17,779 nt of DNA from a phage. Below are positions 1,602 to 16,478 of this stretch, in pieces. The DNA is taken from NCBI GenBank assembly GCA_030820665.1, contig GCA_030820665.1_4852.1. The stretch is one strand, 5' to 3'. The notes beneath the pieces are model-generated. The model had not been told where the DNA came from, searched no databases, and worked only from the letters and a program-made list of their open reading frames with translations. The translations under genes and the position numbers were made by a program. Position 1 is the first letter of the stretch; the number at the start of each line of letters is the position of its first letter.

Positions 1602-1633
1602 TTGACCAATCTACACCGAGCGCATAGTATAAT
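1602..1633 (+). promoter_or_regulatory. Candidate sigma70-type promoter for the small-gene cluster
   Basis: TTGACC at 1602-1607, 17-nt spacer, TAGTAT at 1625-1630 (overlapping a perfect TATAAT at 1628-1633); about 30 nt upstream of the ATG at 1662. Confidence 0.35.
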
Positions 1634-1661
1634 CTACATCAGGCTTATCGGAGATATCACT

Positions 1662-1868: not shown

Positions 1869-1872
1869 TGTG

Positions 1873-2067
1873 ATGATTAAGATGAGCAAGATGAGCAACA
1901 GAAGCAAGGTTTGCAGGATTGCTTTATTGCCAATCTTCCTGCCTGTGTGGTTGTTATGGGTTTTATTTTCTGGGGCGAGAAATCTATTTGAGTATCTTGA
2001 ATTTTGTCAGGCAAAGGTTATACGAAAATTCCATGATGTCATTGATAAGTGGTTTCCGCTTGGTTGA
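1873..2067 (+). CDS. Hypothetical small membrane protein (one predicted TM helix)
   Basis: GTG 1870 / ATG 1873 follows GAGGGTGATGTG; hydrophobic stretch IALLPIFLPVWLLWVLF. Confidence 0.5.
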   Translation: MIKMSKMSNRSKVCRIALLPIFLPVWLLWVLFSGARNLFEYLEFCQAKVIRKFHDVIDKWFPLG

Positions 2068-2076
2068 GGTGATGTG

Positions 2077-2244
2077 ATGAAAATTGAAGAAACAGTTAAC
2101 TGCATGGCGATTAATGTGTTCACGGATTGCGATACCATTTGCGTGCAGGATTTCACTGGCGATTATGTCAGGATTGACAAACACCAAGCCGCGCAGCTAA
2201 TCGAAGTCCTGCAACGCTGGGTTAATGGTGAGGAAATTGAGTGA
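2077..2244 (+). CDS. Hypothetical small protein (55 aa; below the ORF-track cutoff)
   Basis: ATG 2077 preceded by GAGGTGATGTG. Translates MKIEETVNCMAINVFTDCDTICVQDFTGDYVRIDKHQAAQLIEVLQRWVNGEEIE. Its TGA (2242-2244) overlaps the next ATG (2244). Confidence 0.4.
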   Translation: MKIEETVNCMAINVFTDCDTICVQDFTGDYVRIDKHQAAQLIEVLQRWVNGEEIE

Positions 2245-2429
2245 TGAGTGTTTATTTCATTCATGGTGAAGTGCTTGATGGTGGTGATGTTGTTACCAAG
2301 GTTTGCGCGACATCTACGGCATCAAACGCCAGTGAAGCGTTTGATTGGTTTTTGGGTTGCGAATTGGTTGTAAAGTACGAAATAAAAGGCTACGACGTCA
2401 TCATTGATAAACTGGAAAAGGTGGAGTGA
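2244..2429 (+). CDS. Hypothetical small protein (61 aa)
   Basis: TGATG stop/start overlap with the upstream gene; ends at TGA 2427-2429, overlapping the next start. Confidence 0.5.
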   Translation: MSVYFIHGEVLDGGDVVTKVCATSTASNASEAFDWFLGCELVVKYEIKGYDVIIDKLEKVE

Positions 2430-2626
2430 TGCATTTCAAATCACTAAATACCATAAGGAACGAGATGGTTGGTGGCAAATATAAAAACCACAGAGACGAA
2501 GTAGTAACCGTTGTTAATGTTGTTGGCGCTGGCGGTGGTTATCAGGTCCATTTTAATTACGGCATGCCATACAATGTGGTTTGCGGACTTGGCAAGTTCA
2601 GGCAGCGATACCCGCATAAGGTTTAG
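2429..2626 (+). CDS. Hypothetical small protein (65 aa), glycine-rich beta-type
   Basis: GGTGGAGTGATG junction (SD plus overlapping stop/start); followed by the terminator at 2647-2677. Confidence 0.5.
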   Translation: MHFKSLNTIRNEMVGGKYKNHRDEVVTVVNVVGAGGGYQVHFNYGMPYNVVCGLGKFRQRYPHKV

Positions 2627-2685: not shown

Positions 2686-4098
2686 ATGTCAAAAATTGAT
2701 GCACTAAACGCTTATATACGCGACCGCGTAGCGAACAATAACCGGGCGATCCAGCAGCAACGGCTTTGCGCTGGCGGGAAGAATCTGGACCAGAAGCGAG
2801 AGTTCATGTGGAAGGAACTTGGCTACCCGCAGGAAATCACCGCCGAGATGTTCCGCTATGCCTATGAGCGACACCCAGCCGCCGCCGCTGGAATTAACCG
2901 CATTATTAATAAATGTTGGCAGAAATACCCTGAAGTTGTCGAAGATGGCGAGGATGACAAGAACTCAACGACATGGGAGCTGTCCATCAACGACATGATG
3001 AAGCGCGCCTACCCGTTCATCAAGGAGGCTGATAAGCGCAACGCCATCAACCGCTATTCCGCTGTTATCCTGCAAATCCGTGACGGCAAACAGTGGAGTG
3101 AGCCTGTAGACATTACAAAAACCCGCCGCATTAAAGATAAATCCATCGCTCGCTTTATTCCGGTATGGGAAGAGCAGCTACGCGTTAGCGCATGGAATAA
3201 CGACGAAACCAGCGAAGACTACGGAATGCCTGAGATGTACGAATATCAGGAAAGCGCCGTGGAGGACTTCGATAGCGATGGCAAGCCTGAGCGTTCCGTG
3301 CAGATTCACCCTGACCGCATCATCATTCTGGCTGAGGGTAGTTTTGACGGCAGTATGTTCAGTGGCATCCCGATGTTGCGTGCTGGCTACAATAGCCTTA
3401 TCGACATGGCTAAGGTTTCAGGTAGTTCAGCAGAAGGATTCCTGAAGAATGCCAGCCGTCAACTGGCTGTTAACTACACGAAGGACAACGTAACGCCAGC
3501 AAGCCTTGCGCAGTCTATGGGTGTCGATATTGAAGAACTCACTGACATCATGAATGAGAACATCGAAGCGCTAAACTCAGGCATCGACGCAGCTATGTTC
3601 ACAATGGGGGCGGATGCAAAGGTGCTTGCCGTAACGCCAGCCGACCCGAAACCAACATGGGAAGTGGCTGCCAACCAGTTCGCTGCATCAATGGCGCTTC
3701 CGTTCACCGTCATTTTTGGTCAGCAAACCGGACGCCTTGCGAGTGATGAGGACAAGATGCAGGAGGCGATGACAGCCAAGCAGCGCCGCGAAACGTGGGT
3801 TGATTATGTCATCTCAATGTTCGTTGAGCGCATGATTCAGTTCGGCATTGTCGATAAAGCACCGGCAAATGGCTACAAGGTTAAGTGGGATGATCTGCTT
3901 GCCCCATCAGAGCTGGATAAAGCTGAATTGCTGTCCAAGCTCGCCACTGCGAACAAGTCCTTCTTTGATGCTGGTCAATCTGCACTGCTGACCGTCGATG
4001 AAGCTCGCGGCATGGTTTGCATGGAGCCAATTGAACTTGACGAAAGCTATCGCGAAGACACACCGCCGGAAGACGAAAATGAAGATACTCCGGTTTAA
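2686..4098 (+). CDS. Portal protein (putative)
   Basis: 470-aa ORF immediately downstream of TerL and upstream of a MuF-like gene, with an acidic C-terminal tail ([11 protein letters not shown]). Called from size and gene order, not from a specific motif. Confidence 0.7.
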
Positions 4099-5029
4099 CG
4101 CAAGGCTACCCCAACCGCGCATATCGCAGAGCCTGACAGACCCGCTGGGTGCTGCGACTCGCCTGTCGAAGATGGATAAGGTGATAACGCGCAAATACAA
4201 ACAATTCAGGACTCGTGCTCTTGAGTTGTTTCGCACTATTCCGAACGGTCAGGCTAATGCAGAATCAAGCGGTCTGTATTTCTACGATTTCAGCAGTGCA
4301 CGGGCTGCCACTTTCATGGATGAGTTACAGGCGCTGATTGACGAGATTCTTCTTGAAGGTGATGATTTCGGTCACGGCAGGATGTGGGCCAATGTGTTCA
4401 TTGGTGATGCGTATCAGGCCGGAACACAAAAGGCTAACTCAGAACTGTCAAGCCTGTCTCCGGTTTACGCTGAGCAGAGGCCGATTGCCGCGATACTCTA
4501 CAGTGAGCCTTACCTGAATCGGCTCCAACTGGCTTATACGCAAGGTTACTCAGACTGGCGCGGATTGAGTGATTACTCCCGCCAGCAACTGGCATCTGTC
4601 ATTATGGAAGGCATTGCCCGTGGCGCTAATCCTCGCGATGTTGAAGCTGACATTGTTAAACGTGTTGATGTATCTCACAGCTACGCGAAACAGTTGGCGC
4701 AGACTGAAATAACCGGAACGCTACGTCAGGCTAACAGGCGGGAGGTCATTGAGGCGCGCGAAGAGTTAGGCATTGAGACGGTGATGCTGTGGCAATCGGC
4801 GTTGATGCGCACAACCCGCCAGACGCACGCAGCGCGACACGGACGGTTTTATACACCAGAAGAGATTGACACGTTTTATAGCGAGAATGGCAATAAATAT
4901 AATTGTCACTGTGCACAAACACCAGCATTGCTAATGGATGGGAAACCAGTCATTCTTGAATCCTCGCAGGAAAGGCTTGATAAACAGCGTGAAGCATGGC
5001 AATCAGTCAACAAAAAGCCCTCTAAGTGA
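4079..5029 (+). CDS. Head morphogenesis protein, MuF / SPP1 gp7-like (minor head protein)
   Basis: ORF track 3998-5029; the ATG at 4079 (MKILRF...) overlaps the portal stop by 20 nt. Position after the portal and about 315 aa fit the MuF-like family. Start is uncertain (4172 is an alternative). Confidence 0.65.
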
Positions 5030-5112: not shown

Positions 5113-5757
5113 TTAATCATCCAGTTTCACGCCTGGAATTTTTCCTGCTGCAATGGCTTCATAAATTAGCTTGGCCTCGTCCTCGCGCCTGTAATCTTGA
5201 GCTGCCATTTCTAACACCGCGCAGATAGACTCAAGTACAGCCTCATGCTTCTTTTCTGCTTCTGTGCGTAGTGGTTTTAGGCTTTCCGGTACGAAGCAGC
5301 ATGACCGACCAGCACCACCTTCATCCCAATAGCAAACAGCCACATCGTTTCCGTCCGTTGTTGTCTTGTGCGCTACAACTTCCATTTCAGTGCCAGCATC
5401 AGGAATCCAGTCATTGCAGTATCCTAACTTTGGATTAAAGAAGAATTCTACTTTTGCACCAACTGGCGGCAGGCCTTCTCCATTCCATGTCTGCTTTTGC
5501 AATGCTGCTAGCGCGGATTCATACAAGTCGCGAGTTATCATACAATAATCCGTGGCTACGCTGACATAGCGACCGGGTATGGGGATTGCCACGGTGTACT
5601 GAAATGGCACATCAAAACCATCGCTATATCCCTTTGGGAAACAAAAAGCAATTGTGATACTGTCACCATTGAAATCACCAACTCGACACCTCTCAGCACC
5701 ATCAGGCCACCCACCACGCTTAGGTAATTCTTGAACTAACAGGTCGATAAGTTTCAT
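5113..5757 (-). CDS. Hypothetical protein (214 aa), distal gene of the minus-strand operon
   Basis: Uninterrupted minus-strand ORF; its start overlaps the stop of the upstream gene (5754-5757). No motif recognised. Confidence 0.65.
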   Translation of the reverse strand: MKLIDLLVQELPKRGGWPDGAERCRVGDFNGDSITIAFCFPKGYSDGFDVPFQYTVAIPIPGRYVSVATDYCMITRDLYESALAALQKQTWNGEGLPPVGAKVEFFFNPKLGYCNDWIPDAGTEMEVVAHKTTTDGNDVAVCYWDEGGAGRSCCFVPESLKPLRTEAEKKHEAVLESICAVLEMAAQDYRREDEAKLIYEAIAAGKIPGVKLDD

Positions 5758-6068
5758 TTTGTTTCTCCCAATGCTTTATTAACCGCGGCACGTGCATTAT
5801 CCAGAGCGCGACGCTTGCTTGATGTTGTCCAGCATTTTCCGGAGTGGTCGTCGTAGATTTCCAGAAGTTGCTGGAGTGCTGATAACAGGTCAGGAGATGC
5901 CGCTATTAGCCTTGCGTTATGCCATTGCTCGGTTTTATCACCGTTATATGTTGGAGTGAATGCAACCTCGACACCAATATCCGAGATAACATCTGGCGCG
6001 TTATCATCACCAACAACAACTTCCCATTTTCCATGCGTACCTTTAAATTCTTTCACATCCAACCTCAC
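5754..6068 (-). CDS. Hypothetical protein (104 aa), GTG start
   Basis: Minus ORF with no internal Met; the GTG start at 6068 overlaps the TGA of the upstream mini-ORF (GTGA). Confidence 0.55.
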   Translation of the reverse strand: MRLDVKEFKGTHGKWEVVVGDDNAPDVISDIGVEVAFTPTYNGDKTEQWHNARLIAASPDLLSALQQLLEIYDDHSGKCWTTSSKRRALDNARAAVNKALGETK

Positions 6069-6208
6069 TTAATATACTCAACAATCTCAACTTCACGCAT
6101 CTGCACCAGGCCAAATGGTGCAACCACCTTACCGCACGGACGGATTTTGATTTGCTCAAGGTTGAACACTCCGCAGCGTCCGTTTTCTTTGAATTTGACC
6201 ATTACCAT
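6065..6208 (-). CDS. Hypothetical mini-protein (47 aa)
   Basis: Hand translation of the minus strand: MVMVKFKENGRCGVFNLEQIKIRPCGKVVAPFGLVQMREVEIVEYIK. Packed between neighbours with overlapping stop/start codons. Confidence 0.4.
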   Translation of the reverse strand: MVMVKFKENGRCGVFNLEQIKIRPCGKVVAPFGLVQMREVEIVEYIK

Positions 6209-6210
6209 AA

Positions 6211-6369
6211 TTAATACCCGTTTTTCTTGGCTAATTGTTGCGCACGTTTCTTCGTGTACCCACAGGCCATCAGGCGCTTGACCTCGTTGCGGCGCCTTGC
6301 GAAATGGTACTCACGAGAATTAAATGCACATTCGTTGCTAAAGTTAACATTACGTGGATTCATCTTCAT
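6211..6369 (-). CDS. Hypothetical basic mini-protein (52 aa), first gene of the minus-strand operon
   Basis: Hand translation: MKMNPRNVNFSNECAFNSREYHFARRRNEVKRLMACGYTKKRAQQLAKKNGY. Strong SD (GAGGTGATGAAG then ATG) on the minus strand; Lys/Arg-rich C-terminal half. Confidence 0.45.
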   Translation of the reverse strand: MKMNPRNVNFSNECAFNSREYHFARRRNEVKRLMACGYTKKRAQQLAKKNGY

Positions 6370-6432
6370 CACCTCATTCATCACTTGATGTAGATACTAT
6401 GCACCAACAACCAATCTACGTCAACACCATTG

Positions 6433-6467: not shown

Positions 6468-6746
6468 ATGAAACTATCGCAACGAGGCGTGGAGACGTTT
6501 GGAATTACCGATGCCGTGAATATATCGCCTTACATCACTACCGAGACAACGCAGAATCAGTTCGACGCGCTGGCAAGTCTTGCCACCGACATTGGCATTT
6601 ACGCGTTCCGTAAATCAACGCTTCTGAAGAAGCACAACCTCCGCTGCTTCTCATGTGCTGTTGCGCATTTCATCGCGTGGGGCGAGAAGACTGGCGACAA
6701 AGCAAAACGCAAAGCTGAAAAAGAGGTTTACTGGTATGGCTATTAG
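6468..6746 (+). CDS. GH24 (T4/P22-type) lysozyme-like protein, truncated; probably catalytically inactive
   Basis: Strong SD (GGAGG, 5-nt spacer). The C-terminal half, TQNQFDALASLATDIGIYAFRKSTLLKKHNLR...AHFIAWGEKTGDK, matches the conserved C-lobe of GH24 phage lysozymes (recalled P22 gp19-type NQNQYDALCSL..IG.SAF.GSTVLRQLNL...AF..W). The N-terminal catalytic region is reduced to about 27 residues. Confidence 0.55.
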   Translation: MKLSQRGVETFGITDAVNISPYITTETTQNQFDALASLATDIGIYAFRKSTLLKKHNLRCFSCAVAHFIAWGEKTGDKAKRKAEKEVYWYGY

Positions 6747-7200
6747 TAAAAACATGAAGGCGTTTCTGGATATGCTGGCGTACAGCGAGGGCACTGATAA
6801 CGGGCGGCAGAAAACCAATAATCATGGTTATGATGTGATTGTTGGCGGCTCACTGTTTACCGACTATTCCGACCACCCGCGCAAGCTGATTAGCCTGCCA
6901 AGGCTGGGCATTAAATCCACCGCCGCCGGTCGCTATCAGGTACTGGCTAAGTTTTATGATGCGTACAAAAAGCAATTGCGTTTACCGGACTTCTCCCCCG
7001 CATCGCAGGACGCCATTGCAATGCAGCTAATCCGTGAATGCAAGGCCACCGCTGATATTGAGGCTGGTCGCATTGCTGATGCCATCCATAAATGCCGCTC
7101 CCGCTGGGCCTCATTGCCGGGCGCTGGGTATGGTCAGCATGAGCAGAAGCTGGATAAGCTGATTCAGGTATACAAAGAGGCTGGCGGAGCTGTGGCATGA
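6736..7200 (+). CDS. Endolysin, lambda R-type lytic transglycosylase
   Basis: From the ATG at 6736 (AAGAGG SD upstream) the protein is MAISKNMKAFLDMLAYSEGTDNGRQKTNNHGYDVIVGG...WASLPGAGYGQ..., near-colinear with lambda R as recalled, including the catalytic Glu context LAYSEGTD. Confidence 0.88.
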   Translation: MAISKNMKAFLDMLAYSEGTDNGRQKTNNHGYDVIVGGSLFTDYSDHPRKLISLPRLGIKSTAAGRYQVLAKFYDAYKKQLRLPDFSPASQDAIAMQLIRECKATADIEAGRIADAIHKCRSRWASLPGAGYGQHEQKLDKLIQVYKEAGGAVA

Positions 7201-7436
7201 AAAAGCTAAGCAACTGGCTGCTCGCCGCGTGGATTTCATTCTGCTCGCTGTTACAACTATGGCCTGATGCAATGATGCATGTGTGGGTAATGATGCCGGA
7301 TGACCTGAAAGCAGCGCTACCGCTAATCGTGGTCAAAGGTGTGAGTTACTCAATTATGCTTGTCGGCATCATCGGCAAAATGCACGGCATGAGGAAGGAA
7401 AACCGGAGGCTGCGCAATGATGTCGATTCTCGTTAA
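7197..7436 (+). CDS. Putative holin (two predicted TM helices, charged C-terminus)
   Basis: 79 aa; the ATGA overlaps the endolysin stop. Hydrophobic segments LSNWLLAAWISFCSLLQLW and LPLIVVKGVSYSIMLVGIIG, then KMHGMRKENRRLRNDVDSR. Confidence 0.45.
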   Translation: MKKLSNWLLAAWISFCSLLQLWPDAMMHVWVMMPDDLKAALPLIVVKGVSYSIMLVGIIGKMHGMRKENRRLRNDVDSR

Positions 7437-7908
7437 ATACTGGCGACCGCTGGCAATTATTATAATTGTTGCCGCTGGCGCGTTGTGGGTGGCAAATAAA
7501 GTGTCCGGTTATGGCGAGCAACAATATGCCGCCGGATACGCGAAGGCAGTCGCAGAACAGAAGGCCGCAGACGAACAAGAGGAGCAACGACGCAATGCAG
7601 AACTGCAAAAGATTCAGGCCGACGCACAGCAAAGGATTGATGCTGCGCGCAATGATGCTGTTAATGCTGCCGCTAAGTCTGGCAGGTTGCAGCAACAACT
7701 CACCAGTATCCGCAAGCAGCTCGTCGGATATTCCACCGCTGAGTCCATTGGCAACCCAGCCGCAGAAACCGGAGTTTTGCTTGCAGACGTGCTCCGCAAA
7801 TCTGTCGAAAGAAATCAACAGCTGGCAGATTACGCTGACAGGGCGAGAGAGGCAGGATTGACGTGTGAGGCACAGTATAATTCTCTGCGTAATAAAAAAG
7901 CCCCGTGA
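7417..7908 (+). CDS. Rz-like inner-membrane spanin (i-spanin)
   Basis: N-terminal TM helix (LAIIIIVAAGALWVA) followed by a Gln/Ala/Glu/Arg-rich predicted coiled coil; CCGGAGG SD; lies after the endolysin and holin candidate. Confidence 0.75.
   Translation: MMSILVKYWRPLAIIIIVAAGALWVANKVSGYGEQQYAAGYAKAVAEQKAADEQEEQRRNAELQKIQADAQQRIDAARNDAVNAAAKSGRLQQQLTSIRKQLVGYSTAESIGNPAAETGVLLADVLRKSVERNQQLADYADRAREAGLTCEAQYNSLRNKKAP
7640..7861 (+). CDS. Rz1-like outer-membrane lipoprotein spanin (o-spanin), nested in the +1 frame of the Rz-like gene
   Basis: ATG 7640 with AAAGGA SD. Translates MLRAMMLLMLPLSLAGCSNNSPVS...DIPPLSPLATQPQKPEF...: signal peptide, lipobox LAGC, proline-rich periplasmic segment. 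Lies entirely inside 7417-7908. Confidence 0.75.
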   Translation: MLRAMMLLMLPLSLAGCSNNSPVSASSSSDIPPLSPLATQPQKPEFCLQTCSANLSKEINSWQITLTGRERQD

Positions 7909-7922
7909 TGGGGCTTTGTTTT
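7898..7922. terminator. Rho-independent terminator (bidirectional) closing the lysis cassette
   Basis: AGCCCC (7899-7904) / GGGGCT (7910-7915) stem with loop GTGAT; A-run upstream and T-run downstream. Overlaps the Rz-like stop codon. Confidence 0.7.
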
Positions 7923-7942
7923 AACCTTCTCCGTAGCCAATG

Positions 7943-8320
7943 TCACGCATAAAGCGCCTCCATCTTGTACCCAAACATAATTGCATTCTGATGCTCAGTG
8001 CTACCAGAAAACACCAGATAGCGTTTACCTCGATTATCCGTAACGATGTAGGCAGCTGGTGAGTTTTCCTTCCTAAATCTGGCTTCGTCATCACTCCCTT
8101 CATACATCCTCCCACTCGCTGGCAGATACAAATCGAATGTTTGAATTTCCGTTCCGCTGCATTCATTGCTACGTTCATTGAACAGGATAGCCAATCTTGG
8201 GTTGCCATTGGAATGCTTTGCAGGGAATGCGATTCTCCAGCCATCGCACATATACTGACTTGGGTAGGATAGCCATGACTTACCGCGCCTACCCTCCGTA
8301 AGAATCGGCTTACTCGCCAT
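7943..8320 (-). CDS. Hypothetical protein (125 aa)
   Basis: Minus ORF (track 7943-8368). The ATG at 8320 has a strong SD (GGAGGATCATA then ATG). No motif recognised. Confidence 0.55.
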   Translation of the reverse strand: MASKPILTEGRRGKSWLSYPSQYMCDGWRIAFPAKHSNGNPRLAILFNERSNECSGTEIQTFDLYLPASGRMYEGSDDEARFRKENSPAAYIVTDNRGKRYLVFSGSTEHQNAIMFGYKMEALYA

Positions 8321-8585
8321 TATGATCCTCCACAATCCGCACCAGTGAGCACTCAAGATTCGGTGCATTGTAATTACCAGCCAGAAACAGCACGCTACCA
8401 GTGCTAATAAGCACCTGCTTCGCGTTCGCCTGCGACAGATTCTGCACGATGAATTGCGCTGTTTCTGTGCCGATTTTCAGCACTGCGCTGCCGTCGCTGT
8501 TCAGTGATACAAGTTGTGCGGAAGTGTCAGTAATGTTGGTGAAGTTCGCGTTTCGCTGCGCGATTGTGATGTCGCAAAAAGACAT
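8310..8585 (-). CDS. Hypothetical protein (91 aa)
   Basis: Minus ORF; overlaps the downstream gene start by 11 nt and abuts the upstream gene. Confidence 0.5.
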   Translation of the reverse strand: MSFCDITIAQRNANFTNITDTSAQLVSLNSDGSAVLKIGTETAQFIVQNLSQANAKQVLISTGSVLFLAGNYNAPNLECSLVRIVEDHNGE

Positions 8586-8887
8586 TATTTAATCTCTCCG
8601 TTCAGTTCATTAACAATTAACGTTGCATAGCCAGCAATATCTTTCCAGCTGTCATCATAAGTCGGGTCGCCATTCAGAATGCGCCCAATCTTGTGCTGAA
8701 TCATGTCGAGCGCCTCGCGTTGACTTGGTGTGAGATTGCGCCAGCCATCTACCTTGCGCATCACATCTTTCAACTCCTGCATAATTTCAGCGCCGTCTTT
8801 GAATTTACCGTATCGACTACCGCGTTCGGTGATGAGTCGCTCTGTTGCGTCAGTATGGCGCTTATCGCCCGTGATTTGTGAACTCAT
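8585..8887 (-). CDS. Hypothetical protein (100 aa), probably all-alpha
   Basis: Minus ORF with SD GGAGAA. Translates MSSQITGDKRHTDATERLITERGSRYGKFKDGAEIMQELKD...SQREALDMIQHKIGRILNGDPTYDDSWKDIAGYATLIV. No confident family assignment. Confidence 0.55.
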   Translation of the reverse strand: MSSQITGDKRHTDATERLITERGSRYGKFKDGAEIMQELKDVMRKVDGWRNLTPSQREALDMIQHKIGRILNGDPTYDDSWKDIAGYATLIVNELNGEIK

Positions 8888-9374
8888 TGTGATGCATTCT
8901 CCTGAATTCTTTTATTTTTGCTTCTGCTTCTCTTATGTCGGAAAAGTAACCAACTGTGAATCTTTTGCCATTTACTCCAACTCTTGCATGCCACTTGTTG
9001 TGCGATGAACTCCAGTTAACCCCCTTGATACCGCTAGTGTTGTTTTTGTTCATTGCTTTGTTGTGGCTATTCTCAAATTTGCTGGCCTCCCTTAAATTGC
9101 ACGCCCTGTTGTCATTGCGAATGCCATTAATGTGGTCAATCATTTCACTTGCTGGCGCGCCATGAATGCATATCCATGCCAATCTGTGAGCAAGAAAAGC
9201 CCTACCGCAAAGAATTATTTGCACATATCCATCTGGCTTTAAGTAGCCAGCCACACTCCCTTTTTCTGCAATCCTATTCCTTGTCTTTAGCCATTTAAAT
9301 TCCCCAGTTAGTGGATTGTAGTAAAGGTAACTCAATATAAACTCCCTACTCGGCTCATCTCTCCTATGCCTCAT
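8862..9374 (-). CDS. HNH homing endonuclease (HNH_3-type core with AP2-like C-terminal domain)
   Basis: Motifs YNPLTGEFKW, HRLAWICIHG, IDHINGIRNDNRACNLR and C-terminal SGIKGVNWSSSHNKWHARVGVNGKRFTVGYFSDIREAEAKIKEF. The region looks AT-richer than the flanking sequence. Confidence 0.85.
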   Translation of the reverse strand: MRHRRDEPSREFILSYLYYNPLTGEFKWLKTRNRIAEKGSVAGYLKPDGYVQIILCGRAFLAHRLAWICIHGAPASEMIDHINGIRNDNRACNLREASKFENSHNKAMNKNNTSGIKGVNWSSSHNKWHARVGVNGKRFTVGYFSDIREAEAKIKEFRRMHHNEFTNHGR

Positions 9375-9577
9375 TTCTCATCCTCTTTCATTGTCACCCT
9401 ATTATTCTCGTCAACACTGAAGTTGGCCCGAATCAAATCATACATATCTTCCTTAGGCATATCAGCCAGCGCCACATAGCAACGGGCGAAGTAGCGAACA
9501 TCACGGAGTGTCAGCGGTTGTCGCTTCTCCACAATGCTGGTGATAATGTCCATCGGCTCGCGTCGTGGTCTTGGCAT
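9371..9577 (-). CDS. Hypothetical protein (68 aa), first gene of the minus-strand operon
   Basis: Strong SD on the minus strand (GAAGGAGTAGTAAAT then ATG); its stop overlaps the HNH start (ATGA). Confidence 0.5.
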   Translation of the reverse strand: MPRPRREPMDIITSIVEKRQPLTLRDVRYFARCYVALADMPKEDMYDLIRANFSVDENNRVTMKEDEK

Positions 9578-9676
9578 ATTTACTACTCCTTCTCGAAAAA
9601 CATCTTGACGTTTCTACATCATTTAGTCAATGCTTGTTGACGTAGATTGTACCACAACGGAAAAGGTGATGTGGAA
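9578..9676. promoter_or_regulatory. Divergent intergenic region, probable promoter(s) for the 9577 minus operon and the 9677 plus block
   Basis: 99-bp AT-rich gap between divergently oriented genes. TTGACG (9606-9611) and TTGACG (9637-9642) on the plus strand; TTGACT and TACAAT-like hexamers on the minus strand. Spacing is not ideal for any single pair. Confidence 0.25.
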
Positions 9677-9874
9677 ATGCGATACAAAGAAATAGCAGCG
9701 AGATACCAGAAGGAAGTTCGCGAGGTTATGGAAATCCTTAACGTTCGCGAGGATACCATTAAGTTTGTGGAAACCGCCATGTGTTCACTGGCGCTTGAAG
9801 CGGAGGTTGCGGGTCGTGAAAAGGCTGACGAACTTATATCTGCGGTGGTTTATAGTTCAACCAGTAACGGTTGA
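9677..9874 (+). CDS. Hypothetical protein (65 aa)
   Basis: ATG 9677 with AAGGTG SD (track ORF 9647 starts at an upstream TTG). Confidence 0.45.
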   Translation: MRYKEIAARYQKEVREVMEILNVREDTIKFVETAMCSLALEAEVAGREKADELISAVVYSSTSNG

Positions 9875-9934
9875 AGATGAAGGTTATCTGTGCGTTGAGC
9901 ACGTTGTTATCAAATTCTACGGGAGAAATTATAA

Positions 9935-10129
9935 ATGGCGCATGACGAACTGTACGAAGAATCGTTAATCCAGAGGTTGAATGAAGTTGAGCGCACTCGC
10001 GAATGGCTGGAGTGCGAGTTACGAGAAGTGCGCAACCGCCTGCAACGCAAGCGCAGTCAGCAAAGAGATGTCATCGACTGGTCTGGGGGTACACCTAAAT
10101 TTAACAATCTGGGAGAATGGTTGAAATGA
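9935..10129 (+). CDS. Hypothetical protein (64 aa), charged, probably helical
   Basis: GGGAGA SD; its stop overlaps the start of the downstream HNH gene. Confidence 0.45.
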   Translation: MAHDELYEESLIQRLNEVERTREWLECELREVRNRLQRKRSQQRDVIDWSGGTPKFNNLGEWLK

Positions 10130-10656
10130 GCAACATTAGTAAGGAAAGCATTTTAAAGTTCCTCCAGCATGATGAAAATACAGGAAACTTTCTATGGATT
10201 GATAATTTCTCAAGAAAATCAAAGAAAGGGAAGGTGGCTGGAGGTATTACATCGCATGGGTATTGGAGAATTCAACTCCCCATCGGGAGGTTTTACGCAC
10301 ACAGAATGGCGTGGATTGTTTGCAATGGAGATATACCAAACGGATATGAGATTGATCACATAAATGGGAACAAGAAAGATAATCGCATCAGCAACCTAAG
10401 ATTGGTCACAAGAGGTCAAAATGTTATGAATGTAGGCGTGAAAAACAATAATACAAGCGGAGTTAAGGATGTTGTTTGGGACTCTTCGCGAGAAAGGTGG
10501 AGGGTTCAAATTACAGCCAATGGCAAGCATTATTATGGAGGTAGATTCTCGTCAATAACACAAGCAAAAGAGGAGAGGAACAGGCTCATAAAGATGGTTC
10601 ACGGGAAATTTTTGAATACAAAAGGTGAGCAATATGACACTACTAATGAACGATGA
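10126..10656 (+). CDS. HNH homing endonuclease (HNH_3-type core with AP2-like C-terminal domain)
   Basis: Motifs ENTGNFLW, HRMAWIVCNG, IDHINGNKKDNRISNLR and SGVKDVVWDSSRERWRVQITANGKHYYGGRFSS; paralogous to 8862-9374 and to the fragment at 1-168. Start is 10126 or 10117. Confidence 0.85.
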   Translation: MSNISKESILKFLQHDENTGNFLWIDNFSRKSKKGKVAGGITSHGYWRIQLPIGRFYAHRMAWIVCNGDIPNGYEIDHINGNKKDNRISNLRLVTRGQNVMNVGVKNNNTSGVKDVVWDSSRERWRVQITANGKHYYGGRFSSITQAKEERNRLIKMVHGKFLNTKGEQYDTTNER

Positions 10657-10870
10657 GAAATTACTTGAATGCCCGTTTTGTGGTTGTGATGACGTAAGTG
10701 TTATTGATGACGGCGAATGGTTGCACGTTGAGTGCGGAGATTGTTTTTGCCGCACTGACTCGTATTGCTGCGCATCCACGGCAATGAAGAAATGGAACAC
10801 AAGAGGTGGACACCTCTACACTTCCGACGACTTCAATCAGGCAGCAGAGGAGCGTGATTATGGACTATAA
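10634..10870 (+). CDS. Lar-like zinc-finger protein (restriction-alleviation family candidate)
   Basis: About 78 aa with LLECPFCG...x19...CGDCFC plus additional Cys, and a C-terminal AMKKWNTRGG resembling the Lar-family ...AWNRR ending (family recalled from memory). AGGTGA SD; the 5' end overlaps the HNH 3' end by 23 nt. Confidence 0.55.
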   Translation: MTLLMNDEKLLECPFCGCDDVSVIDDGEWLHVECGDCFCRTDSYCCASTAMKKWNTRGGHLYTSDDFNQAAEERDYGL

Positions 10871-11348
10871 ATCACAAATCATGCGCGTGATTATGAATCA
10901 CCCCGGAGCAACGCGCGCATACATTGAGAAGCATTGCGGAGGTAAGCATTCAAGCACCACAACGCATCGCTTACATGAGATGCTTGCTCTTGGATTCATT
11001 CGTCGCGAGAAGTCAGTGATTCGCGGCGGCAAGTGGCAGTATAAATATTTCATCTCTGATGATGCAGCCGGTATTGATGATGCTATTAAGTGCCATTTGC
11101 TTGATAACGCTGGCGCGGAAGTGAAAGAAATCAGTACCACCACTGGCATTGATTATCGCATCGTGAAAAGCCGCATCCGCATTATGTTTCATAACGGTGA
11201 TGTGACGCGAAGCTATGACCACCACAAGAAGCTGTGGCGTTATTCATGGAAGGAGAAGGAAGTCAATGTAAGCAATCTATTTAATTCACTTCTTCGCAGC
11301 GTAAGGGGTCAGCATGGGAAAAGCCAAACGCAAGAAGCAAGAGTATGA
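10860..11348 (+). CDS. Putative DNA-binding protein with two winged-helix-like repeats
   Basis: The ATG at 10860 overlaps the Lar-like stop. Two similar segments (MRVIMNHPGATRAYIEKHCG...RLHEMLALGFIRRE and KEISTTTGIDYRIVKSRIRIMFHNGDVTRS) resemble wHTH recognition units. Pattern-based only. Confidence 0.45.
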   Translation: MDYKSQIMRVIMNHPGATRAYIEKHCGGKHSSTTTHRLHEMLALGFIRREKSVIRGGKWQYKYFISDDAAGIDDAIKCHLLDNAGAEVKEISTTTGIDYRIVKSRIRIMFHNGDVTRSYDHHKKLWRYSWKEKEVNVSNLFNSLLRSVRGQHGKSQTQEARV

Positions 11349-11490
11349 ACCTCTACCGCCATGCGAAATGTCAGGAATGCCGCAGCAGGAGGATGTGATT
11401 CTCACCGAGGCTGAGTGGCGCAAGGTGGCAAGAGTGCAAATCATGTTCCGCACACTTGCTGAGGATGTACTAAATGAAATGGGCTATTAA
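11314..11490 (+). CDS. Hypothetical mini-protein (58 aa; below the ORF-track cutoff)
   Basis: ATG 11314 with GGGG SD. Translates MGKAKRKKQEYEPLPPCEMSGMPQQEDVILTEAEWRKVARVQIMFRTLAEDVLNEMGY. Overlaps both neighbours. Confidence 0.3.
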   Translation: MGKAKRKKQEYEPLPPCEMSGMPQQEDVILTEAEWRKVARVQIMFRTLAEDVLNEMGY

Positions 11491-11827
11491 GCATAAATCC
11501 GGCAGAACTCTGTTTGTAACATCGGATGAGTTTATTGCCAATAACCGTAGAAAGATGGGCTGGATAGTAGAGGAAGTGAAGATGACGAGTAGAGAGCAGT
11601 TTGAGCTCCAATGCAGAAATGGGTTGATCAATGGCGGATTAGCAGTGTTTGAAAATGGTGTTTACGCTTCCGAATTAACAAGAGCTGTCTGGGCTGGATG
11701 GAAAGCATCGCGCGCAGCAATTGAAATTGAATTGCCAGAGGAAGAAAGTTTGGGATGCCACGCTATTTACTATGCAGAAGATGTTATTGAGGCAATTGAA
11801 CAATCAGGCTTAAAGGTGAAAAAATGA
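11474..11827 (+). CDS. Hypothetical protein (117 aa)
   Basis: ORF with GAGGATG SD; ATGA overlap with the next gene. Confidence 0.5.
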   Translation: MKWAIKHKSGRTLFVTSDEFIANNRRKMGWIVEEVKMTSREQFELQCRNGLINGGLAVFENGVYASELTRAVWAGWKASRAAIEIELPEEESLGCHAIYYAEDVIEAIEQSGLKVKK

Positions 11828-12150
11828 TTATCCAACTAAACGACATTATGAAAGCAGACATCATTCAGCTTGAAGATTATGACGTGCAACTGGCGTTTGA
11901 AATCGAAACAGTTGAGCGTCAGCTGCAGTATGCTGATAAGAAGAATGATCGTGTCTGGCACGAGAAAGCACTTAAGGCGCGCGACCACATGAAACGCACG
12001 CGAGCGCTTATCAAAACGCGACTCGACAAGCTGTATTTTGGTGAAGAACGCATGTTGCATGGCGCGATACTGGCGCAAATCCGCAAGGAAATGCCAATTG
12101 GCAAGTTTATGTCATACGTTCACCGCGCAAAGCAGGAGGCCGGGTTATGA
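11824..12150 (+). CDS. Hypothetical protein (108 aa)
   Basis: Coupled ORF (ATGA overlaps at both ends). Confidence 0.5.
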   Translation: MIIQLNDIMKADIIQLEDYDVQLAFEIETVERQLQYADKKNDRVWHEKALKARDHMKRTRALIKTRLDKLYFGEERMLHGAILAQIRKEMPIGKFMSYVHRAKQEAGL

Positions 12151-12335
12151 GCGAACCAAAATTTCCAGAGCTGCCTGTTGAGGTTCAGGTTGCATTGATC
12201 AATGCGGCAAGTGCAATGGCGACAAAGAAGATTGAGGCAATAGGCAGTGATTACAACAGGAGCATAGACTGGTTTCAGAGGGAGTATCAAAAAATCTGCG
12301 ACGCACTCTACAAAGAAAACAGAGGTAGATCATGA
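12147..12335 (+). CDS. Hypothetical protein (62 aa)
   Basis: Coupled ORF; its stop overlaps the next ATG (12332). Confidence 0.45.
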   Translation: MSEPKFPELPVEVQVALINAASAMATKKIEAIGSDYNRSIDWFQREYQKICDALYKENRGRS

Positions 12336-12478
12336 TTTCATTGCTTTGGATATTATCAGCATATGCATTTGCGAGAGTATTTGAGGCCGACACTCTGTAC
12401 CAGATGATTTGCTATGGCGCTCTGTTCTGTCTCTCTGGTGCTGCGCTCGCATTCATTGATGATGTGATTTCAGAATAA
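12332..12478 (+). CDS. Hypothetical small hydrophobic protein (48 aa; below the ORF-track cutoff)
   Basis: ATGA overlap with the upstream gene. Translates MISLLWILSAYAFARVFEADTLYQMICYGALFCLSGAALAFIDDVISE. Confidence 0.35.
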   Translation: MISLLWILSAYAFARVFEADTLYQMICYGALFCLSGAALAFIDDVISE

Positions 12479-12632
12479 CTCCGTATATCTTTTGTTCATC
12501 ATGGGCTGCTATCATTTAATCATGAGGTAGCCCATGAACATAATCCCTATCACTTACTTTCTCACGCTATACGCACTCACCAATTCGCCATTGTTTGCAC
12601 TGGCTACCGCCTCGTGGTGCTATATCTCCCTG

Positions 12633-12641
12633 TGTTATAAT
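12633..12641 (+). promoter_or_regulatory. Candidate extended -10 promoter (TGtTATAAT) for the head operon
   Basis: TG at 12633-12634 and a perfect TATAAT at 12636-12641, about 32 nt upstream of the ATG at 12673 (GGAGAG SD). Preceded by a 194-bp non-coding leader. Confidence 0.45.
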
Positions 12642-12672
12642 TCGACCACAAACTAACCGTGGAGAGTTAACC

Positions 12673-14088
12673 ATGATTGTCAAGATTGGCGATAAGTGGG
12701 TGGTCAAGTCGAAAGACGGCTCACAGCAATTTGGTGAATACGACACAGAAGAGGCAGCAAAAAAACGCCTCGCAGAAGTCGAAGCGTTTAAGCACATGAA
12801 TAATAAATTGCAGGTTAACGTCCTGACAACCATCAATTCAGCCAGCAATATCAGTGAGCAAATCATTGATGGCGACCCGCACTACGTAATTAAAAACGTC
12901 GTGCCAGTGGTTGATGATGTTGTGATGAATAACGGCCTGTATCCGGGAGAGGAAATCCGCAAGAGCTATCACGGACTTGATGGTAAACCTGCACCATACA
13001 ATCACCCGATGATTGACGGTAAATATGTCTCTGCAAGCATGACGCGCGCAGCTAACCAGTTCAGCGTTGGCGCATGGATTGAAAACTCATCTCATGACGG
13101 CAGCAAGGCGCTGGTTGACCTGAAGGTAAACAAAGTCATCGCTGAACGCTCCGAGAAAGGTCAGGAGTTGCTTGGTCGCATTGAAGCGCTAATGAACTCC
13201 GCAGAAGGCGCAGAGCCAATCCATGTATCCACCGGCTTATTGCTCAACCGCGAGGCTACGGAAGGCACAAGCAAAGGCAAAAAATACACATGGATTGCGC
13301 GCAACATGGAATGGGACCATCTCGCCATCCTGCCGCCGGGAGTGCCAGGAGCTGGAACGCCAGAAGATGGTGTTGGAATCTTTGCCACCAACGGCGAGCA
13401 AATCGAACGCATCACCGTAAACCTTGAGGACTCAACCGTGCCAGACGAAAGCGCCAACAAGATTAATTATAAATCGTGGCTACATAAGGCCATCAACTAC
13501 ATCACCAACAAATCAGATTTGTCGTTTGAGAACATCAGTGAGCAGATTCGCCAGATTCTGAAGGCTGAAGTTGGCGAGGATGTCTGGCCTTATATTGTGG
13601 CTGTGTACGACGACCGCGTCGGATTTGAAATCAAAGGCCAGATTTTTCAGCAGCTCTACATCGTTGAAGATGATGTGGTAAAATTGGTCGGTGAGCGGGT
13701 CAAGGCTGTTTATAAAACTGAACTTGAGCCGGTAAAATCAACTGAAGGGGAAATCTCAATGACGAACGAGGAATTACAAGCGGCAGTAGCGGAAGCTACC
13801 AAGTTGGCCGTTAATGAAGCCCTCAAGCCGGTTCAGGAAAAGCTTGATTCCGTCACTGCTGAACTGACCGATGTTAAAGGCAAGCTCGCAGCCAACGCCG
13901 AGCAGGAAGAAACCGCGATGCGTGCTGCTATCATCGCGGAACTGAAACTGCCGGAATCCGCTGTGAATGCGCTGAAAGGCGAAGCACTGCGTGAAACCTA
14001 TGCGTTGACCAGCAAGCCTGCTGCGCTGAAGGGTGGCTTCCAGCCGAACCACGCTGATGACGATTTTGATATGGAGGCACCGGAATAA
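12673..14088 (+). CDS. Putative prohead scaffold / head maturation protein (C-terminal coiled-coil domain)
   Basis: ORF track 12595-14088; ATG 12673 follows GGAGAG. The C-terminal ~110 aa ([48 protein letters not shown]...) is scaffold-like. Position immediately upstream of the small head protein and capsid gene. Confidence 0.55.
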
Positions 14089-14573
14089 TGGCTACTATCC
14101 GTTATGGCACCATCATTGGTGGTCCAGCTCGCAAGAACGACCCGCAGATTCGCGAAGGCATCATGAAGGTCGCGTTGAAGCCGGGCGCACTGGTTGACTT
14201 CGATACTGCCTCCTCAATTCGTTCCAATTATGACAAAATCATCGCACACGCTACCGCTGGCGGTCAGGGATTCCCTTACGTGCTTCAGCATAACTATCTC
14301 GGTGGTGGCGATGTATCTGAATCAGTTCCTGCTAATGCTACTGGCATGGCTGTGCAGTGCGAATTTGGCGTCACCTATCACGCACTGGTTGCTGCATCTT
14401 CCGAGCTGAAGAAAGGCACCCCGTTGGCAAGTAATGGTACTGGCGCGCTGAAAGTTGCTGGTAATAGGGATAACATCCTGTTCTATTCTTATGAAACTTA
14501 CACCGTTGCCTCTGATGGCGCTGAGCTGGTTGCAGTTCGTCGCGCTGGCAATGCTTCCATGCCTGCGGCGTAA
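14088..14573 (+). CDS. Putative head decoration / auxiliary capsid protein (161 aa)
   Basis: TAATG overlap with the scaffold stop; lies between the scaffold-like gene and the capsid gene; Gly/Ala/Thr-rich, beta-type composition. Confidence 0.45.
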
Positions 14574-14584
14574 GGAGCCGAATA

Positions 14585-15658
14585 ATGGAAAAGATTATTT
14601 TTACCAAAGACTTGGTAGCCAACTCCGCAGTGGTGGCTGACCAGTGGAAACATCTCACCATCGACCGCAAGGTGTTCTGCAATGCAGAAGCTGAACTGGC
14701 GAAAACATACGGTGTTAACGCCACCGCGCTGGTAACGAAAGATTACTGGCGCGACGTGGATAACGTCACCACCCGTGTTTTCCGCAACGAAGCTGGCCAG
14801 GACATGATGGCTGACCTGATGGGTATCGCGGCAAACATTAACATTGGTAAGACTGTGGCAATCAGCCGCATTGCTTCCGATGCTGGCAAGGTAGTCCGCA
14901 CTCTGTCTGGTCAGGAGCCGGAAGACTTGGATAAAACTCGCTACGATTACACTGGCGACGTGATTCCAATCTTCAAAACTGGCTACAGCCGCGAATGGCG
15001 CGAACTGCTGGGTATGCAGTCTGAAGGTTTTGACCCCCTGCTGGACGATCAGGCTAACGTCACCTTTAACCTACGTTCCGACATGGCGCAGTATCTGCTG
15101 ACCGGCGACCAGACTCTGAACGTGAACGGCGTTTACACTGGCTACGGTATCACCAACCACCCGAACACCATTCAGGTCGACCTGAACGTTTCCAATGGCA
15201 GCCTGAAGATCGACCTGCAAACCGCAACGCCAGATGAAATCGTGAAATTCTTCAATCAGGATTTCCAGGCTATTCTGGATGCGCAGAACGTATTTGAGCA
15301 GGTGACTCTGTGGGTTTCCCCGGCAGTGCGTCGCAGTTTCATGCGTCCGTATTCTGATGCGGCTGGCTTCAAAGGCGGCACGGTTGAGCAGTACATCACG
15401 CAGTTCGGTAATGGTCGCATTGGTAAGATTGGCACCAACTTCCTGCTGACTGGCAACCATTTCGTTGGTTACGTTCGCAACGACATGTACATCCGTCCGC
15501 GTGTTGCTCAGCCTGTCTCCACCTATGCGGCAGCTCGCACCAACCCGCACGATAACTTTAACTTCCTCGTATGGTCTGCTTTCGGTCTGCAGATTCGCAA
15601 GGATGCCGCTGGAAAAAGCCGCGTCTTTAATTGCTATGGTAGCCAGAAAGCTAAATAA
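14585..15658 (+). CDS. Major capsid protein (putative)
   Basis: 357-aa ORF with a strong AAGGAG SD, last gene of the scaffold-decoration-capsid block, followed by a strong terminator. Confidence 0.65.
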   Translation: MEKIIFTKDLVANSAVVADQWKHLTIDRKVFCNAEAELAKTYGVNATALVTKDYWRDVDNVTTRVFRNEAGQDMMADLMGIAANINIGKTVAISRIASDAGKVVRTLSGQEPEDLDKTRYDYTGDVIPIFKTGYSREWRELLGMQSEGFDPLLDDQANVTFNLRSDMAQYLLTGDQTLNVNGVYTGYGITNHPNTIQVDLNVSNGSLKIDLQTATPDEIVKFFNQDFQAILDAQNVFEQVTLWVSPAVRRSFMRPYSDAAGFKGGTVEQYITQFGNGRIGKIGTNFLLTGNHFVGYVRNDMYIRPRVAQPVSTYAAARTNPHDNFNFLVWSAFGLQIRKDAAGKSRVFNCYGSQKAK

Positions 15659-15660
15659 TA

Positions 15661-15687
15661 AAAAAGGGGGTTTATCCCCCTTCTTTG
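15661..15687. terminator. Rho-independent bidirectional terminator
   Basis: AAAAAGGGGG-TTTAT-CCCCCTTCTTTG: GGGGG/CCCCC stem (15666-15670 / 15676-15680) with an A-run upstream and T-run downstream. The minus-strand gene's stop (15672-15674) lies in the loop. Confidence 0.8.
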
Positions 15688-16478
15688 TATCTAATTTCAC
15701 CGTAAACCATGTACTGTAACATGTAACAAAACTCCCATTCCGTCATATCTGTCCGTAGCCACTTCCTGTTCTTCTTGTAATTGTACTCCGCCAGCTCCGC
15801 TTTTAAATTGTGAAGAGCATTAACCAGTTCTGGATATACGAGGTTATTCTTAACAAACCAGTTGACAGATAAAATATGGTCAATATGCCAATTATTGCGG
15901 TCATCAAAACTCATCCATGGAAGCATGGTTGATTTTATATGCTTAATGAAATCATCCTTTGAGTACCCGAGAACATCATCTACTGTTCTATCAAGCGCAA
16001 TGTCAGATACTCTCATATCAAGCCGCTCAAGCATTTTTCTTAGGAACACGTGGTGTGGGTGCTTCTTTTGCCATTGCCTGACATTATCCAGAGCCTTTTT
16101 ATTGCCTTTCTCTGAGTAGTACCATCTGCGATAAGCTTCCCTTTTCTTTTGTAAAAACTCCTCCTTTTTCTCTGGATTCTCGTTAAGCCTTTGCATCTTC
16201 CTTTTGTTGTACTCCTGTTGTGATTGTTTTCTTTTCTTTTTGTACTCGCTGTTATCCTTGTTTTTCTGCCACTCCTTTTTTCTGTACTCACTTTCCTTGC
16301 GTTTGCGCTCCTCTGTTGTTCTCTGCTTCCTTGTTCTTTCGTATACGCAATGCTTGCATCCGCCTGATGCTGTAAAAAACACAGTTCCACCACATACAGA
16401 GCATGGAATCCATTCACACACAAATTGCTTCAGTCCAGCAACCCTTGCTTCTTGCGCGGCTTCTTTTCTTGTTTTCAT
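15672..16478 (-). CDS. Zinc-ribbon protein with Lys/Arg/Glu-rich repeat linker and a C-terminal HNH-like motif (putative nuclease)
   Basis: 268-aa minus ORF with a strong SD (AGGAGTG). N-terminal CEWIPCSVCGG...GGCKHC; central low-complexity basic region with reiterated SEYRKK/SEYKKKRK/QEYNKRK; C-terminal NNWHIDHILSVNWF...NALHNL resembling an HNH core. Confidence 0.65.
   Translation of the reverse strand: MKTRKEAAQEARVAGLKQFVCEWIPCSVCGGTVFFTASGGCKHCVYERTRKQRTTEERKRKESEYRKKEWQKNKDNSEYKKKRKQSQQEYNKRKMQRLNENPEKKEEFLQKKREAYRRWYYSEKGNKKALDNVRQWQKKHPHHVFLRKMLERLDMRVSDIALDRTVDDVLGYSKDDFIKHIKSTMLPWMSFDDRNNWHIDHILSVNWFVKNNLVYPELVNALHNLKAELAEYNYKKNRKWLRTDMTEWEFCYMLQYMVYGEIRYKEGG

Follow-up and report, generated by a model that had tools for sequence, protein, structure and literature searches.

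A conserved block of small genes between the lysis and head modules of a Skatevirus-cluster siphophage

Introduction

The subject of this study is a block of small plus-strand genes at positions 9677-12478 of a phage contig of 17,779 nucleotides (nt) (GCA_030820665.1_4852.1 of GenBank assembly GCA_030820665.1), which is called the window below. An earlier description made from the letters alone, referred to here as the sequence-only reading, had presented the block as about ten coupled, early-like genes placed between the lysis and head modules, and had taken it for host-takeover or anti-defence cargo. Its position is as described: family searches of the window proteins place the lysis genes at 6468-7908, with the head genes (scaffold, decoration, capsid) occupying 12673-15658. 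To this we add that a minus-strand block (7943-9577) intervenes between the lysis genes and the block under study.

The relatives of the window are siphophages of the Skatevirus cluster. The region 9300-12700 matches 154 deposited phage genomes, with Escherichia phage vB_Eco_ZCEC08 as the top match (96% identity over 88% of the query and, at finer comparison, 98% identity across 7901-11604). These relatives are small virulent siphoviruses of Salmonella, Escherichia coli and Shigella, from the genera Skatevirus, Macdonaldcampvirus (Vi II-E1), Swiduovirus and similar ones; a Jersey-like placement of the window within Guernseyvirinae was considered and rejected in favour of this cluster. Phages Bas77 to Bas81 have been grouped as one Skatevirus cluster by the BASEL authors (PMC11990801). 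The genes of the block carry mostly hypothetical-protein annotations in more than 150 genomes. Small-gene operons of this sort are typical of virulent siphophages; this one is already present in many public genomes and shows no sign of being a new kind of system. Over 200 sequenced phages with hosts in Salmonella, E. coli, Shigella and Klebsiella share it, and its core genes are all left unannotated even though many of these phages have been proposed for therapy or biocontrol.

Genes of the block

The genes are labelled o1 to o11 in the order of the plus strand, and m1 is the first gene on the opposite strand. Lengths are in amino acids (aa), and substitution counts are given for codon positions 1/2/3.

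9677-9874, plus strand: o1, 65 aa, helical, first gene of the operon; phrog_37091; substitutions 4/7/34
9889-9913, plus strand: weak terminator-like hairpin from a pattern scan, in the gap between o1 and o2
9935-10129, plus strand: o2, 64 aa, charged, coiled-coil-like core gene; phrog_15697
10126-10656, plus strand: o3, 176 aa, free-standing HNH homing endonuclease with a weak AP2-like C-terminal region; phrog_99
10634-10870, plus strand: o4 (called Lar below), 78 aa, Lar-family zinc ribbon; PF14354
10860-11348, plus strand: o5, 162 aa, two winged helix-turn-helix domains and a C-terminal helix
11314-11490, plus strand: o6, 58 aa; phrog_17117; substitutions 8/10/69
11474-11827, plus strand: o7, 117 aa, N- and C-terminal parts conserved; PF26207 (Phage_phiTE_015), assigned through homologues
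11824-12150, plus strand: o8, 108 aa, helical
12147-12335, plus strand: o9, 62 aa, variable slot with breakpoints at 12150-12316/12331
12332-12478, plus strand: o10, 48 aa, hydrophobic with two hydrophobic segments; grand average of hydropathy (GRAVY) 1.19
12534-12656, plus strand: o11, 40 aa, hydrophobic; overlooked in the sequence-only reading
9371-9577, minus strand: m1, 68 aa, first gene of the divergent leftward operon; phrog_14963, function unknown

All ten plus-strand open reading frames (ORFs) that had been proposed for 9677-12478 are found there. Their reported size range holds at its lower end (48 aa) and fails at its upper end of 180 aa: the longest products, o3 and o5, have 176 and 162 aa, lengths backed by homologues and by the ZCEC08 annotation, and reach 179 and 180 aa from upstream starts. 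The coupling that had been described through ATGA and TGATG junctions is likewise correct in part. ATGA overlaps are found at o2/o3, o7/o8, o8/o9 and o9/o10, and no TGATG junction was seen; longer overlaps join o3 to o4 (23 nt), o4 to o5 (11 nt), o5 to o6 (35 nt) and o6 to o7 (17 nt), so that eight of the nine junctions overlap and the 60 nt between o1 and o2 are the sole gap. A Shine-Dalgarno-like sequence can be read directly in the DNA 6-11 nt 5' of every gene.

Substitutions by codon position, and the ratio of non-synonymous to synonymous change (dN/dS), were obtained by comparing the window genes with six relatives. The excess at third positions is plain in o5 (50/26/222), o8 (22/8/187) and o10 (21/4/91), and the dN/dS ratio is about 0.02-0.15 for o1, o2, o5, o6, o8 and o10 (about 0.01-0.05 for o8). 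Moreover, every ORF matches a PHROG family, with E values from 1e-15 to 1e-70. The ORFs of the block are genuine genes, and all those tested are under purifying selection; the same holds for o11, whose counts are 3/2/26.

Few of the products can be named. As had been noted before, most are without a known family: apart from the HNH, Lar and winged-helix proteins, our local copy of Pfam assigns no family to the other seven. Searches of Pfam, PHROGs and NCBIfam gave no match of any block product to a virion family, and none to a known anti-defence protein. Searches in and around the block for Rfam families, tRNAs and tandem repeats gave nothing, nor were any meaningful long repeats present; for the "repeat_region" of the Vi II-E1 annotation, no tandem repeat could be recovered.

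A conserved core with variable slots

A profile-guided scan of viral contigs gave 65 IMG/VR loci in two clades, 30 close to the window and 35 distant from it. The clades are split by o5, which is 89-94% identical in the close clade and 34-38% in the distant one, the latter corresponding to Klebsiella siphoviruses such as KpV2811, MK54 and 6991. Present in both clades are m1, o2, Lar, o5, o7, o8, o11 and the scaffold gene, with median identities to the distant clade of 55% for m1, 51% for o2, 49% for Lar, 37% for o5, 67% for o7 (N-terminal part only), 63% for o8, 56% for o11 and 76% for the scaffold gene; o6, o9 and o10 are confined to the close clade. Gene order is identical in eight annotated relatives, and a Logan contig has the same order with the head genes after it. 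Judged by gene content and order, a fixed syntenic core made up of o1, o2, Lar, o5, o7, o8 and o11 precedes the scaffold and capsid genes. By the same comparison m1 is the conserved partner of the block, being found in 30 of 30 close and 34 of 35 distant loci with substitutions (14/15/88) concentrated at third positions.

Homology with the near relatives breaks at three DNA segments:

10130-10790: variable segment covering the HNH gene and the N-terminal part of Lar
about 11585-11822: variable segment in the middle of o7
12150-12331: variable segment, o9

The small-ORF regions of well-known phages offer a frame for this arrangement. The nin region of lambda and the early small-ORF clusters of T4 and T5 consist of genes of 50-180 aa with ATGA-type overlaps, non-structural and mostly of unknown function; their members are partly conserved and partly variable, and free-standing homing endonucleases have often invaded them. 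The block resembles them in gene size, in its overlaps, in its mixture of conserved and variable genes and in its invasion by homing endonucleases. It differs in its place, which is on the strand of the structural genes between the lysis and head modules and with no terminator before the latter, in the fixed order of its core across two genus-level clades, and in a timing that is read from sequence alone.

Individual gene products

The HNH endonuclease predicted by the sequence-only reading is well supported, o3 scoring 71.9 bits against PF13392 (HNH_3; Pfam cut-off 24.8, E 3.3e-20) and matching phrog_99 at E 1e-57. At the DNA level the gene occurs in ZCEC08 only among 50,697 phage records, and in the relatives the slot between o2 and Lar is either empty or occupied by an ORF of 73-76 aa. 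Further HNH genes stand before o1 (in VSt472 and nine distant loci) and between Lar and o5 (in locus L042), which puts HNH genes at three different junctions of the block across different phages. Such patchy presence is the signature of a mobile gene, and by this signature o3 is a selfish insertion in the o2/Lar slot, for which homing is predicted. A conserved core with HNH genes at several junctions points to a core that has been invaded repeatedly by homing endonucleases, not to a cargo island. With other free-standing HNH_3 homing endonucleases of phages (PF13392, phrog_99), o3 shares the catalytic core EIDHINGNKKDNRISNLRLV, a weak AP2-like DNA-binding tail, a location at an intergenic junction and a distribution in which some close relatives have the gene and others lack it. 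It departs from the typical case in having a 41% identical HNH_3 paralogue 750 bp away on the other strand (8862-9374, minus; o3 itself 10126-10656, plus).

The Lar-like zinc finger was also correctly recognised: residues 8-57 of o4 match PF14354 (Lar_restr_allev) with 39.7 bits against a cut-off of 28.6 (E 6e-10). The translation has two cysteine pairs, C13-x2-C16 and C34-x2-C37, followed by WNTR, so that o4 shares with Lar of the Rac prophage and the PF14354 family the format of a zinc ribbon of about 60-80 aa. It differs from Lar/RalR in falling below the NCBIfam cut-offs, with 34.2 against 39.6 bits for TIGR03655 and 27.5 against 113 for NF007260 (the RalR equivalog). The N-terminal part in the window is a divergent allele, 54-59% identical to the one carried by most relatives, and the two coexist in the group; homology resumes at 10791.

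That o5 is a two-repeat winged-helix-like protein is confirmed, since it folds as two winged helix-turn-helix domains. It scores below the Pfam cut-offs of the MarR models (19.2 against 27 bits for MarR_2, 14.7 against 24.6 for MarR), and o5 and its homologues are therefore better named tandem winged-helix proteins than MarR. In addition, MarR/ArsR-type regulators act as homodimers, whereas o5 holds two winged helices in one chain of 162 aa. A word-indexed search for remote homologues gave only relatives of at least 82% identity and a full HMMER search gave 8 matches; a profile search of the PDB gave only borderline matches to AspA (E 0.006), and BFVD returned the protein's own family together with generic winged helices. 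The o5 family is thus a near-orphan. The second recognition helix is kept between the clades, and on its fold o5 is presumed to be a DNA-binding regulator.

The protein o7 is 48-64% identical among near relatives (dN 0.26-0.35), and its middle module, which coincides with the variable DNA at about 11585-11822, is hypervariable. All 584 homologous clusters carry PF26207, a family of unknown function, the precomputed matches being present on every listed homologue down to 96% identity. With conserved ends and a seemingly swappable middle, o7 is the only gene of the block with the look of an arms race. The AlphaFold2 model is poor (predicted local distance difference test, pLDDT, 59.6). Some variants, for example protein P0075, have a CxxCxGxG-type zinc-finger insert in the hypervariable middle, and this module seems to be exchanged as a unit between the conserved N- and C-terminal parts.

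Conservation within the block is highest in o8, which retains 63% identity in the Klebsiella clade and occurs in 209 records of phages whose hosts are Salmonella, Klebsiella, Escherichia and Shigella. It contains an invariant basic segment, HMKRTRAL.RTRLDKLY.GE.R.LHG, forming an Arg- and Lys-rich helix; no Pfam family was matched, and the PDB profile matches were no better than E 0.15. The remaining genes are small. o1 exists as three divergent, recognisably homologous alleles across the group, and o2, present in both clades at 51% identity, has only weak, coiled-coil matches in Pfam. o6 belongs to the Salmonella/E. coli clade only (30 of 30 close and 0 of 35 distant loci), and o9 occurs in four of the eight annotated relatives, 8 of 30 close loci and no distant one, being replaced or absent elsewhere. 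o10 is probably a membrane protein, to judge by its two hydrophobic segments, and occurs in 29 of 30 close and 0 of 35 distant loci. o11 reaches the Klebsiella-phage clade at 56% identity and is annotated in Bas77 alone, as Bas77_0037.

Promoters, the TGAYGTRGA motif and the o11 hairpin

Predicted regulatory elements lie at both ends of the block:

9578-9676: divergent regulatory region, 99 nt between m1 and o1, conserved across all 65 loci
9605-9610 (TTGACG) and 9629-9634 (AATGCT), plus strand: predicted rightward promoter with an 18-nt spacer
9654-9646, minus strand: predicted extended -10 of the leftward (m1) operon, TGGTACAAT, of the form TGnTAnAAT
9613-9621 (minus strand), 9638-9646 (plus strand) and 9667-9675 (plus strand): copies of the motif TGAYGTRGA
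12499-12537, plus strand: hairpin between o10 and o11, with the o11 ribosome-binding site and start codon sequestered in it
12633-12641, plus strand: predicted extended -10 promoter TGTTATAAT of the scaffold/decoration/capsid operon, beginning 40 nt before the ATG at 12673

Over the 65 loci the rightward promoter has the consensus TTGACn-N18-AATACT, with the -10 kept in nearly all of them (the window and locus L015 depart from it); in Bas77 a promoter scan reports TTGACG-N18-AATACT. The leader before the first gene, GGTGRTGTGGAA(A)TG, is fixed, and stays unchanged even where the first gene differs. A second TTGACG, at 9637, was considered as the o1 promoter and rejected: it lacks a usable -10, leaves no room for a ribosome-binding site and, in ASO78B and Vi II-E1, is not conserved. 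The rightward (o1) and leftward (m1) -10 elements lie 11 bp apart on opposite strands (9629-9654), with nearly coincident start sites, and binding of RNA polymerase at the two promoters should therefore be mutually exclusive.

One copy of TGAYGTRGA lies within the spacer of the rightward promoter. The motif is enriched in the window, with 11 matches against 3.7 expected and none of 200 shuffles reaching 11. It gathers at promoter regions of non-structural genes: of 14 matches in the Bas77 genome, 13 fall within intergenic DNA, for the most part between divergent genes, or directly beside it, and of 11 in Klebsiella phage 6991, eight are no more than about 60 nt ahead of an operon's first gene. 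The motif may be an operator for some regulator. Often extended to TTGACGTAGATTG or TGAYGTAGAAAC, it clusters in divergent promoter regions, at 1607-1641, 6386-6423 and 9613-9675 in the window and at many sites in Bas77 and 6991; either orientation occurs, and copies may overlie the -35, the spacer or the +1.

The predicted head promoter TGTTATAAT is embedded in the last codons of o11. The sequence TGTGTTATAAT is invariant in 48 of 48 distinct sequences from the two clades: the three codons that it covers show no synonymous change, while the neighbouring codons drift. TGNTAYAAT has six matches each in Bas77 and Klebsiella phage 6991. In both genomes five of these precede, by 37-45 nt, the genes for portal, scaffold, major tail and tail fibre and the tape-measure operon:

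4352, 13702, 22978, 24774 and 32722: TGNTAYAAT sites in Bas77 (locus L009)
4453, 12885, 22112, 24530 and 32345: TGNTAYAAT sites in Klebsiella phage 6991 (locus L078)

Exact matches in the window are at 2641-2649 (portal) and 12633-12641 (scaffold). From their placement, these elements without a -35 are probably the promoters of the structural genes. Sigma-70 promoters with an extended -10 (TGnTATAAT) and no -35 are an established class in E. coli. The predicted scaffold promoter likewise has a perfect TGTTATAAT and no recognisable -35; it differs from that class in lying inside a 40-aa gene and in being one of five such elements conserved before structural operons. The portal promoter, TGCTATAAT, lies directly 5' of a terminator-like hairpin with a T run, CCCATC...GATGGG TTTTTTATT, within 2641-2675. 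As its predicted start is inside the 5' arm of this hairpin, transcripts from upstream would terminate there and those from the portal promoter would not.

The hairpin between o10 and o11 has a minimum free energy of -22.9 kcal/mol (z -5.2); in the distant clade the values are -25.4 kcal/mol and -5.9, the sequence differing and the structure being kept, and the o11 AUG is paired in all 48 distinct sequences. No U tract follows the hairpin, and Rfam gave no match to it. It could be an element of translational control, a processing site or a 3'-end element. The nearest strong bidirectional terminators are at 7897-7917 and 15660-15686.

Discussion

We favour, with some confidence, the reading in which the block is the rightward arm of a conserved divergent operon pair: a separately promoted, translationally coupled and non-structural set of genes, probably expressed early or in the middle of infection. 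The description "early-like" given in the sequence-only reading stands in so far as the block has a conserved -35/-10 promoter of its own, unlike the extended -10 of the head operon; early timing itself would follow from this promoter architecture, in that membership of the motif-bearing promoter group instead of the extended -10 group fits early or middle expression.

On this reading, transcription of the block by host RNA polymerase would begin from TTGACG-N18-AATGCT and would either precede that of the structural operons or be independent of it; those operons would run from TGnTAYAAT promoters without a -35. Translation would pass along the overlapping genes by coupling, and the products would act inside the infected cell and not as parts of the virion. 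Within this set the tandem winged-helix protein o5 would bind DNA as a regulator, its targets possibly being the TGAYGTRGA sites at most non-structural promoter regions; Lar would be a zinc-ribbon candidate for host interaction or anti-restriction, o7 a rapidly diversifying host-interaction protein, and o10 and o11 small membrane peptides. The hairpin before o11 would limit the translation of this gene, or would mark RNA processing or a 3' end between the block and the head genes.

Several observations weigh against the reading that we favour. The -10 of the window is AATGCT instead of AATACT, by a weakening change at 9632. The m1 operon seemingly uses an extended -10 like the structural operons, so that the promoter classes do not cleanly split structural from non-structural genes, and TGAYGTRGA also occurs upstream of the lysis, major tail and tape-measure operon promoters. 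The link between o5 and the motif is weakened by the 37% identity of o5 between the clades while the motif is conserved. In generic scans the number of promoter-like sites does not exceed that of shuffled controls, and the argument from promoters therefore rests on their conservation and not on the scans. A pattern scan found no intrinsic terminator between o10 (ending at 12478) and the scaffold gene (from 12673), and co-transcription of block and head genes by read-through is thus possible; of the marks of an early operon, the block shows a conserved sigma-70-type promoter of its own and lacks a terminator before the late genes. No function is assigned to o1, o2, o6, o8, o9, o10 and o11. Finally, no transcript timing for this phage group was found in a search of the literature, and timing is for that reason read from the sequence alone; the one RNA-sequencing paper on the Guernseyvirinae concerns Kagunavirus K1B4, a phage without the block, and resolves coarse time classes (PMC12645636).

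The missing terminator is also one of the reasons to consider the block as a late, head-linked accessory module that is co-transcribed with the scaffold and capsid genes, with core products such as o8, o5 and o11 serving in capsid assembly, packaging or late control and not in early host takeover. Such a module would explain why the block, in both clades, keeps its place and its strand immediately before the scaffold, decoration and capsid genes; it would also account for the head promoter embedded in the last gene and for the conservation of o8, about that of structural genes (63% against 76% for the scaffold). We nevertheless regard it as unlikely. None of the products is homologous to a virion or assembly family, the conserved promoter of the block differs in type from those of the five structural operons, and a strong conserved hairpin separates the block from o11 and the head genes; a Lar-family protein, a winged-helix regulator and a homing endonuclease are, moreover, typical of non-structural regions.

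The idea of an island of exchangeable accessory genes for anti-defence or host takeover, countering host immunity, draws on the Lar-family protein, on the hypervariable middle of o7 (584 clusters, raised dN), on the variation in the o2/Lar and o9 slots and on the three very divergent alleles of o1, the first gene after the promoter. The word "cargo", however, does not suit the block: seven of its genes make up a syntenic core that is shared by two clades with scaffold proteins of only 76% identity, and these genes are under purifying selection. The proposed anti-defence function finds no direct support either, its only lead being the name of the Lar family. Small O16-dependent siphoviruses including the Skatevirus phages Bas77-81 are reported to be markedly sensitive to restriction-modification systems (PMC11990801), and Bas77-81 carry a Lar-like gene, a difference from Lar of the Rac prophage. 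With the Lar match below the NCBIfam cut-offs and the group sensitive to restriction-modification, an anti-restriction role is unproven, and none of the products resembles a known anti-defence protein in the libraries searched. We therefore think it improbable that the block is such an island.

More speculative, and in our view rather doubtful, is an extension of the favoured reading in which o5, alone or with o8, would bind TGAYGTRGA and redirect the polymerase of the host, away from promoters that depend on a -35 and towards the five TGnTAYAAT promoters, the head promoter embedded in o11, with its hairpin-locked start, serving as the pivot.

That the short ORFs are chance frames in a largely non-coding region is scarcely credible: five of them have only 48-65 aa and most are without a Pfam family, but the concentration of substitutions at third codon positions in every tested ORF refutes it, and against it stand also a PHROG match for each (E 1e-15 to 1e-70), a ribosome-binding site at each, the compact overlapping junctions and a gene order kept in at least 65 genomes.

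For the phages concerned, the fixed core with its three variable slots (o2/Lar, the middle of o7, and o9) is a guide to the genes worth deleting first (o5, o8, Lar and o7), and the two conserved promoter types that divide the genome indicate where a switch between early and late expression should be sought. Since Bas77-81 of the BASEL collection grow on derivatives of E. coli K-12, these questions are directly testable. The most useful by-products of the analysis are the pair of conserved promoter classes, the motif that recurs across the phage genome, and the overlooked gene o11 together with the hairpin at its start and the promoter inside it.

Remaining features of the window

Apart from the block itself, the following map comes from the family searches:

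104-1585, plus strand: large terminase
1602-2626, plus strand: small ORFs
2686-4098, plus strand: portal
3998-5029, plus strand: head morphogenesis
5113-6384, minus strand: small-gene block
6468-7908, plus strand: lysis genes
7943-9577, minus strand: small-gene block including an HNH gene
9677-12478, plus strand: small-gene block under study
12673-14088, plus strand: scaffold-like gene
14088-14573, plus strand: decoration
14585-15658, plus strand: major capsid

Selfish nucleases are dense in the window. Besides the two HNH_3 paralogues, a gene for an endonuclease VII-like protein of 268 aa follows the capsid gene on the minus strand (15672-16478) and is absent from that place in Bas77, and the AP2-like tail of a further HNH gene lies at the left edge (1-100).

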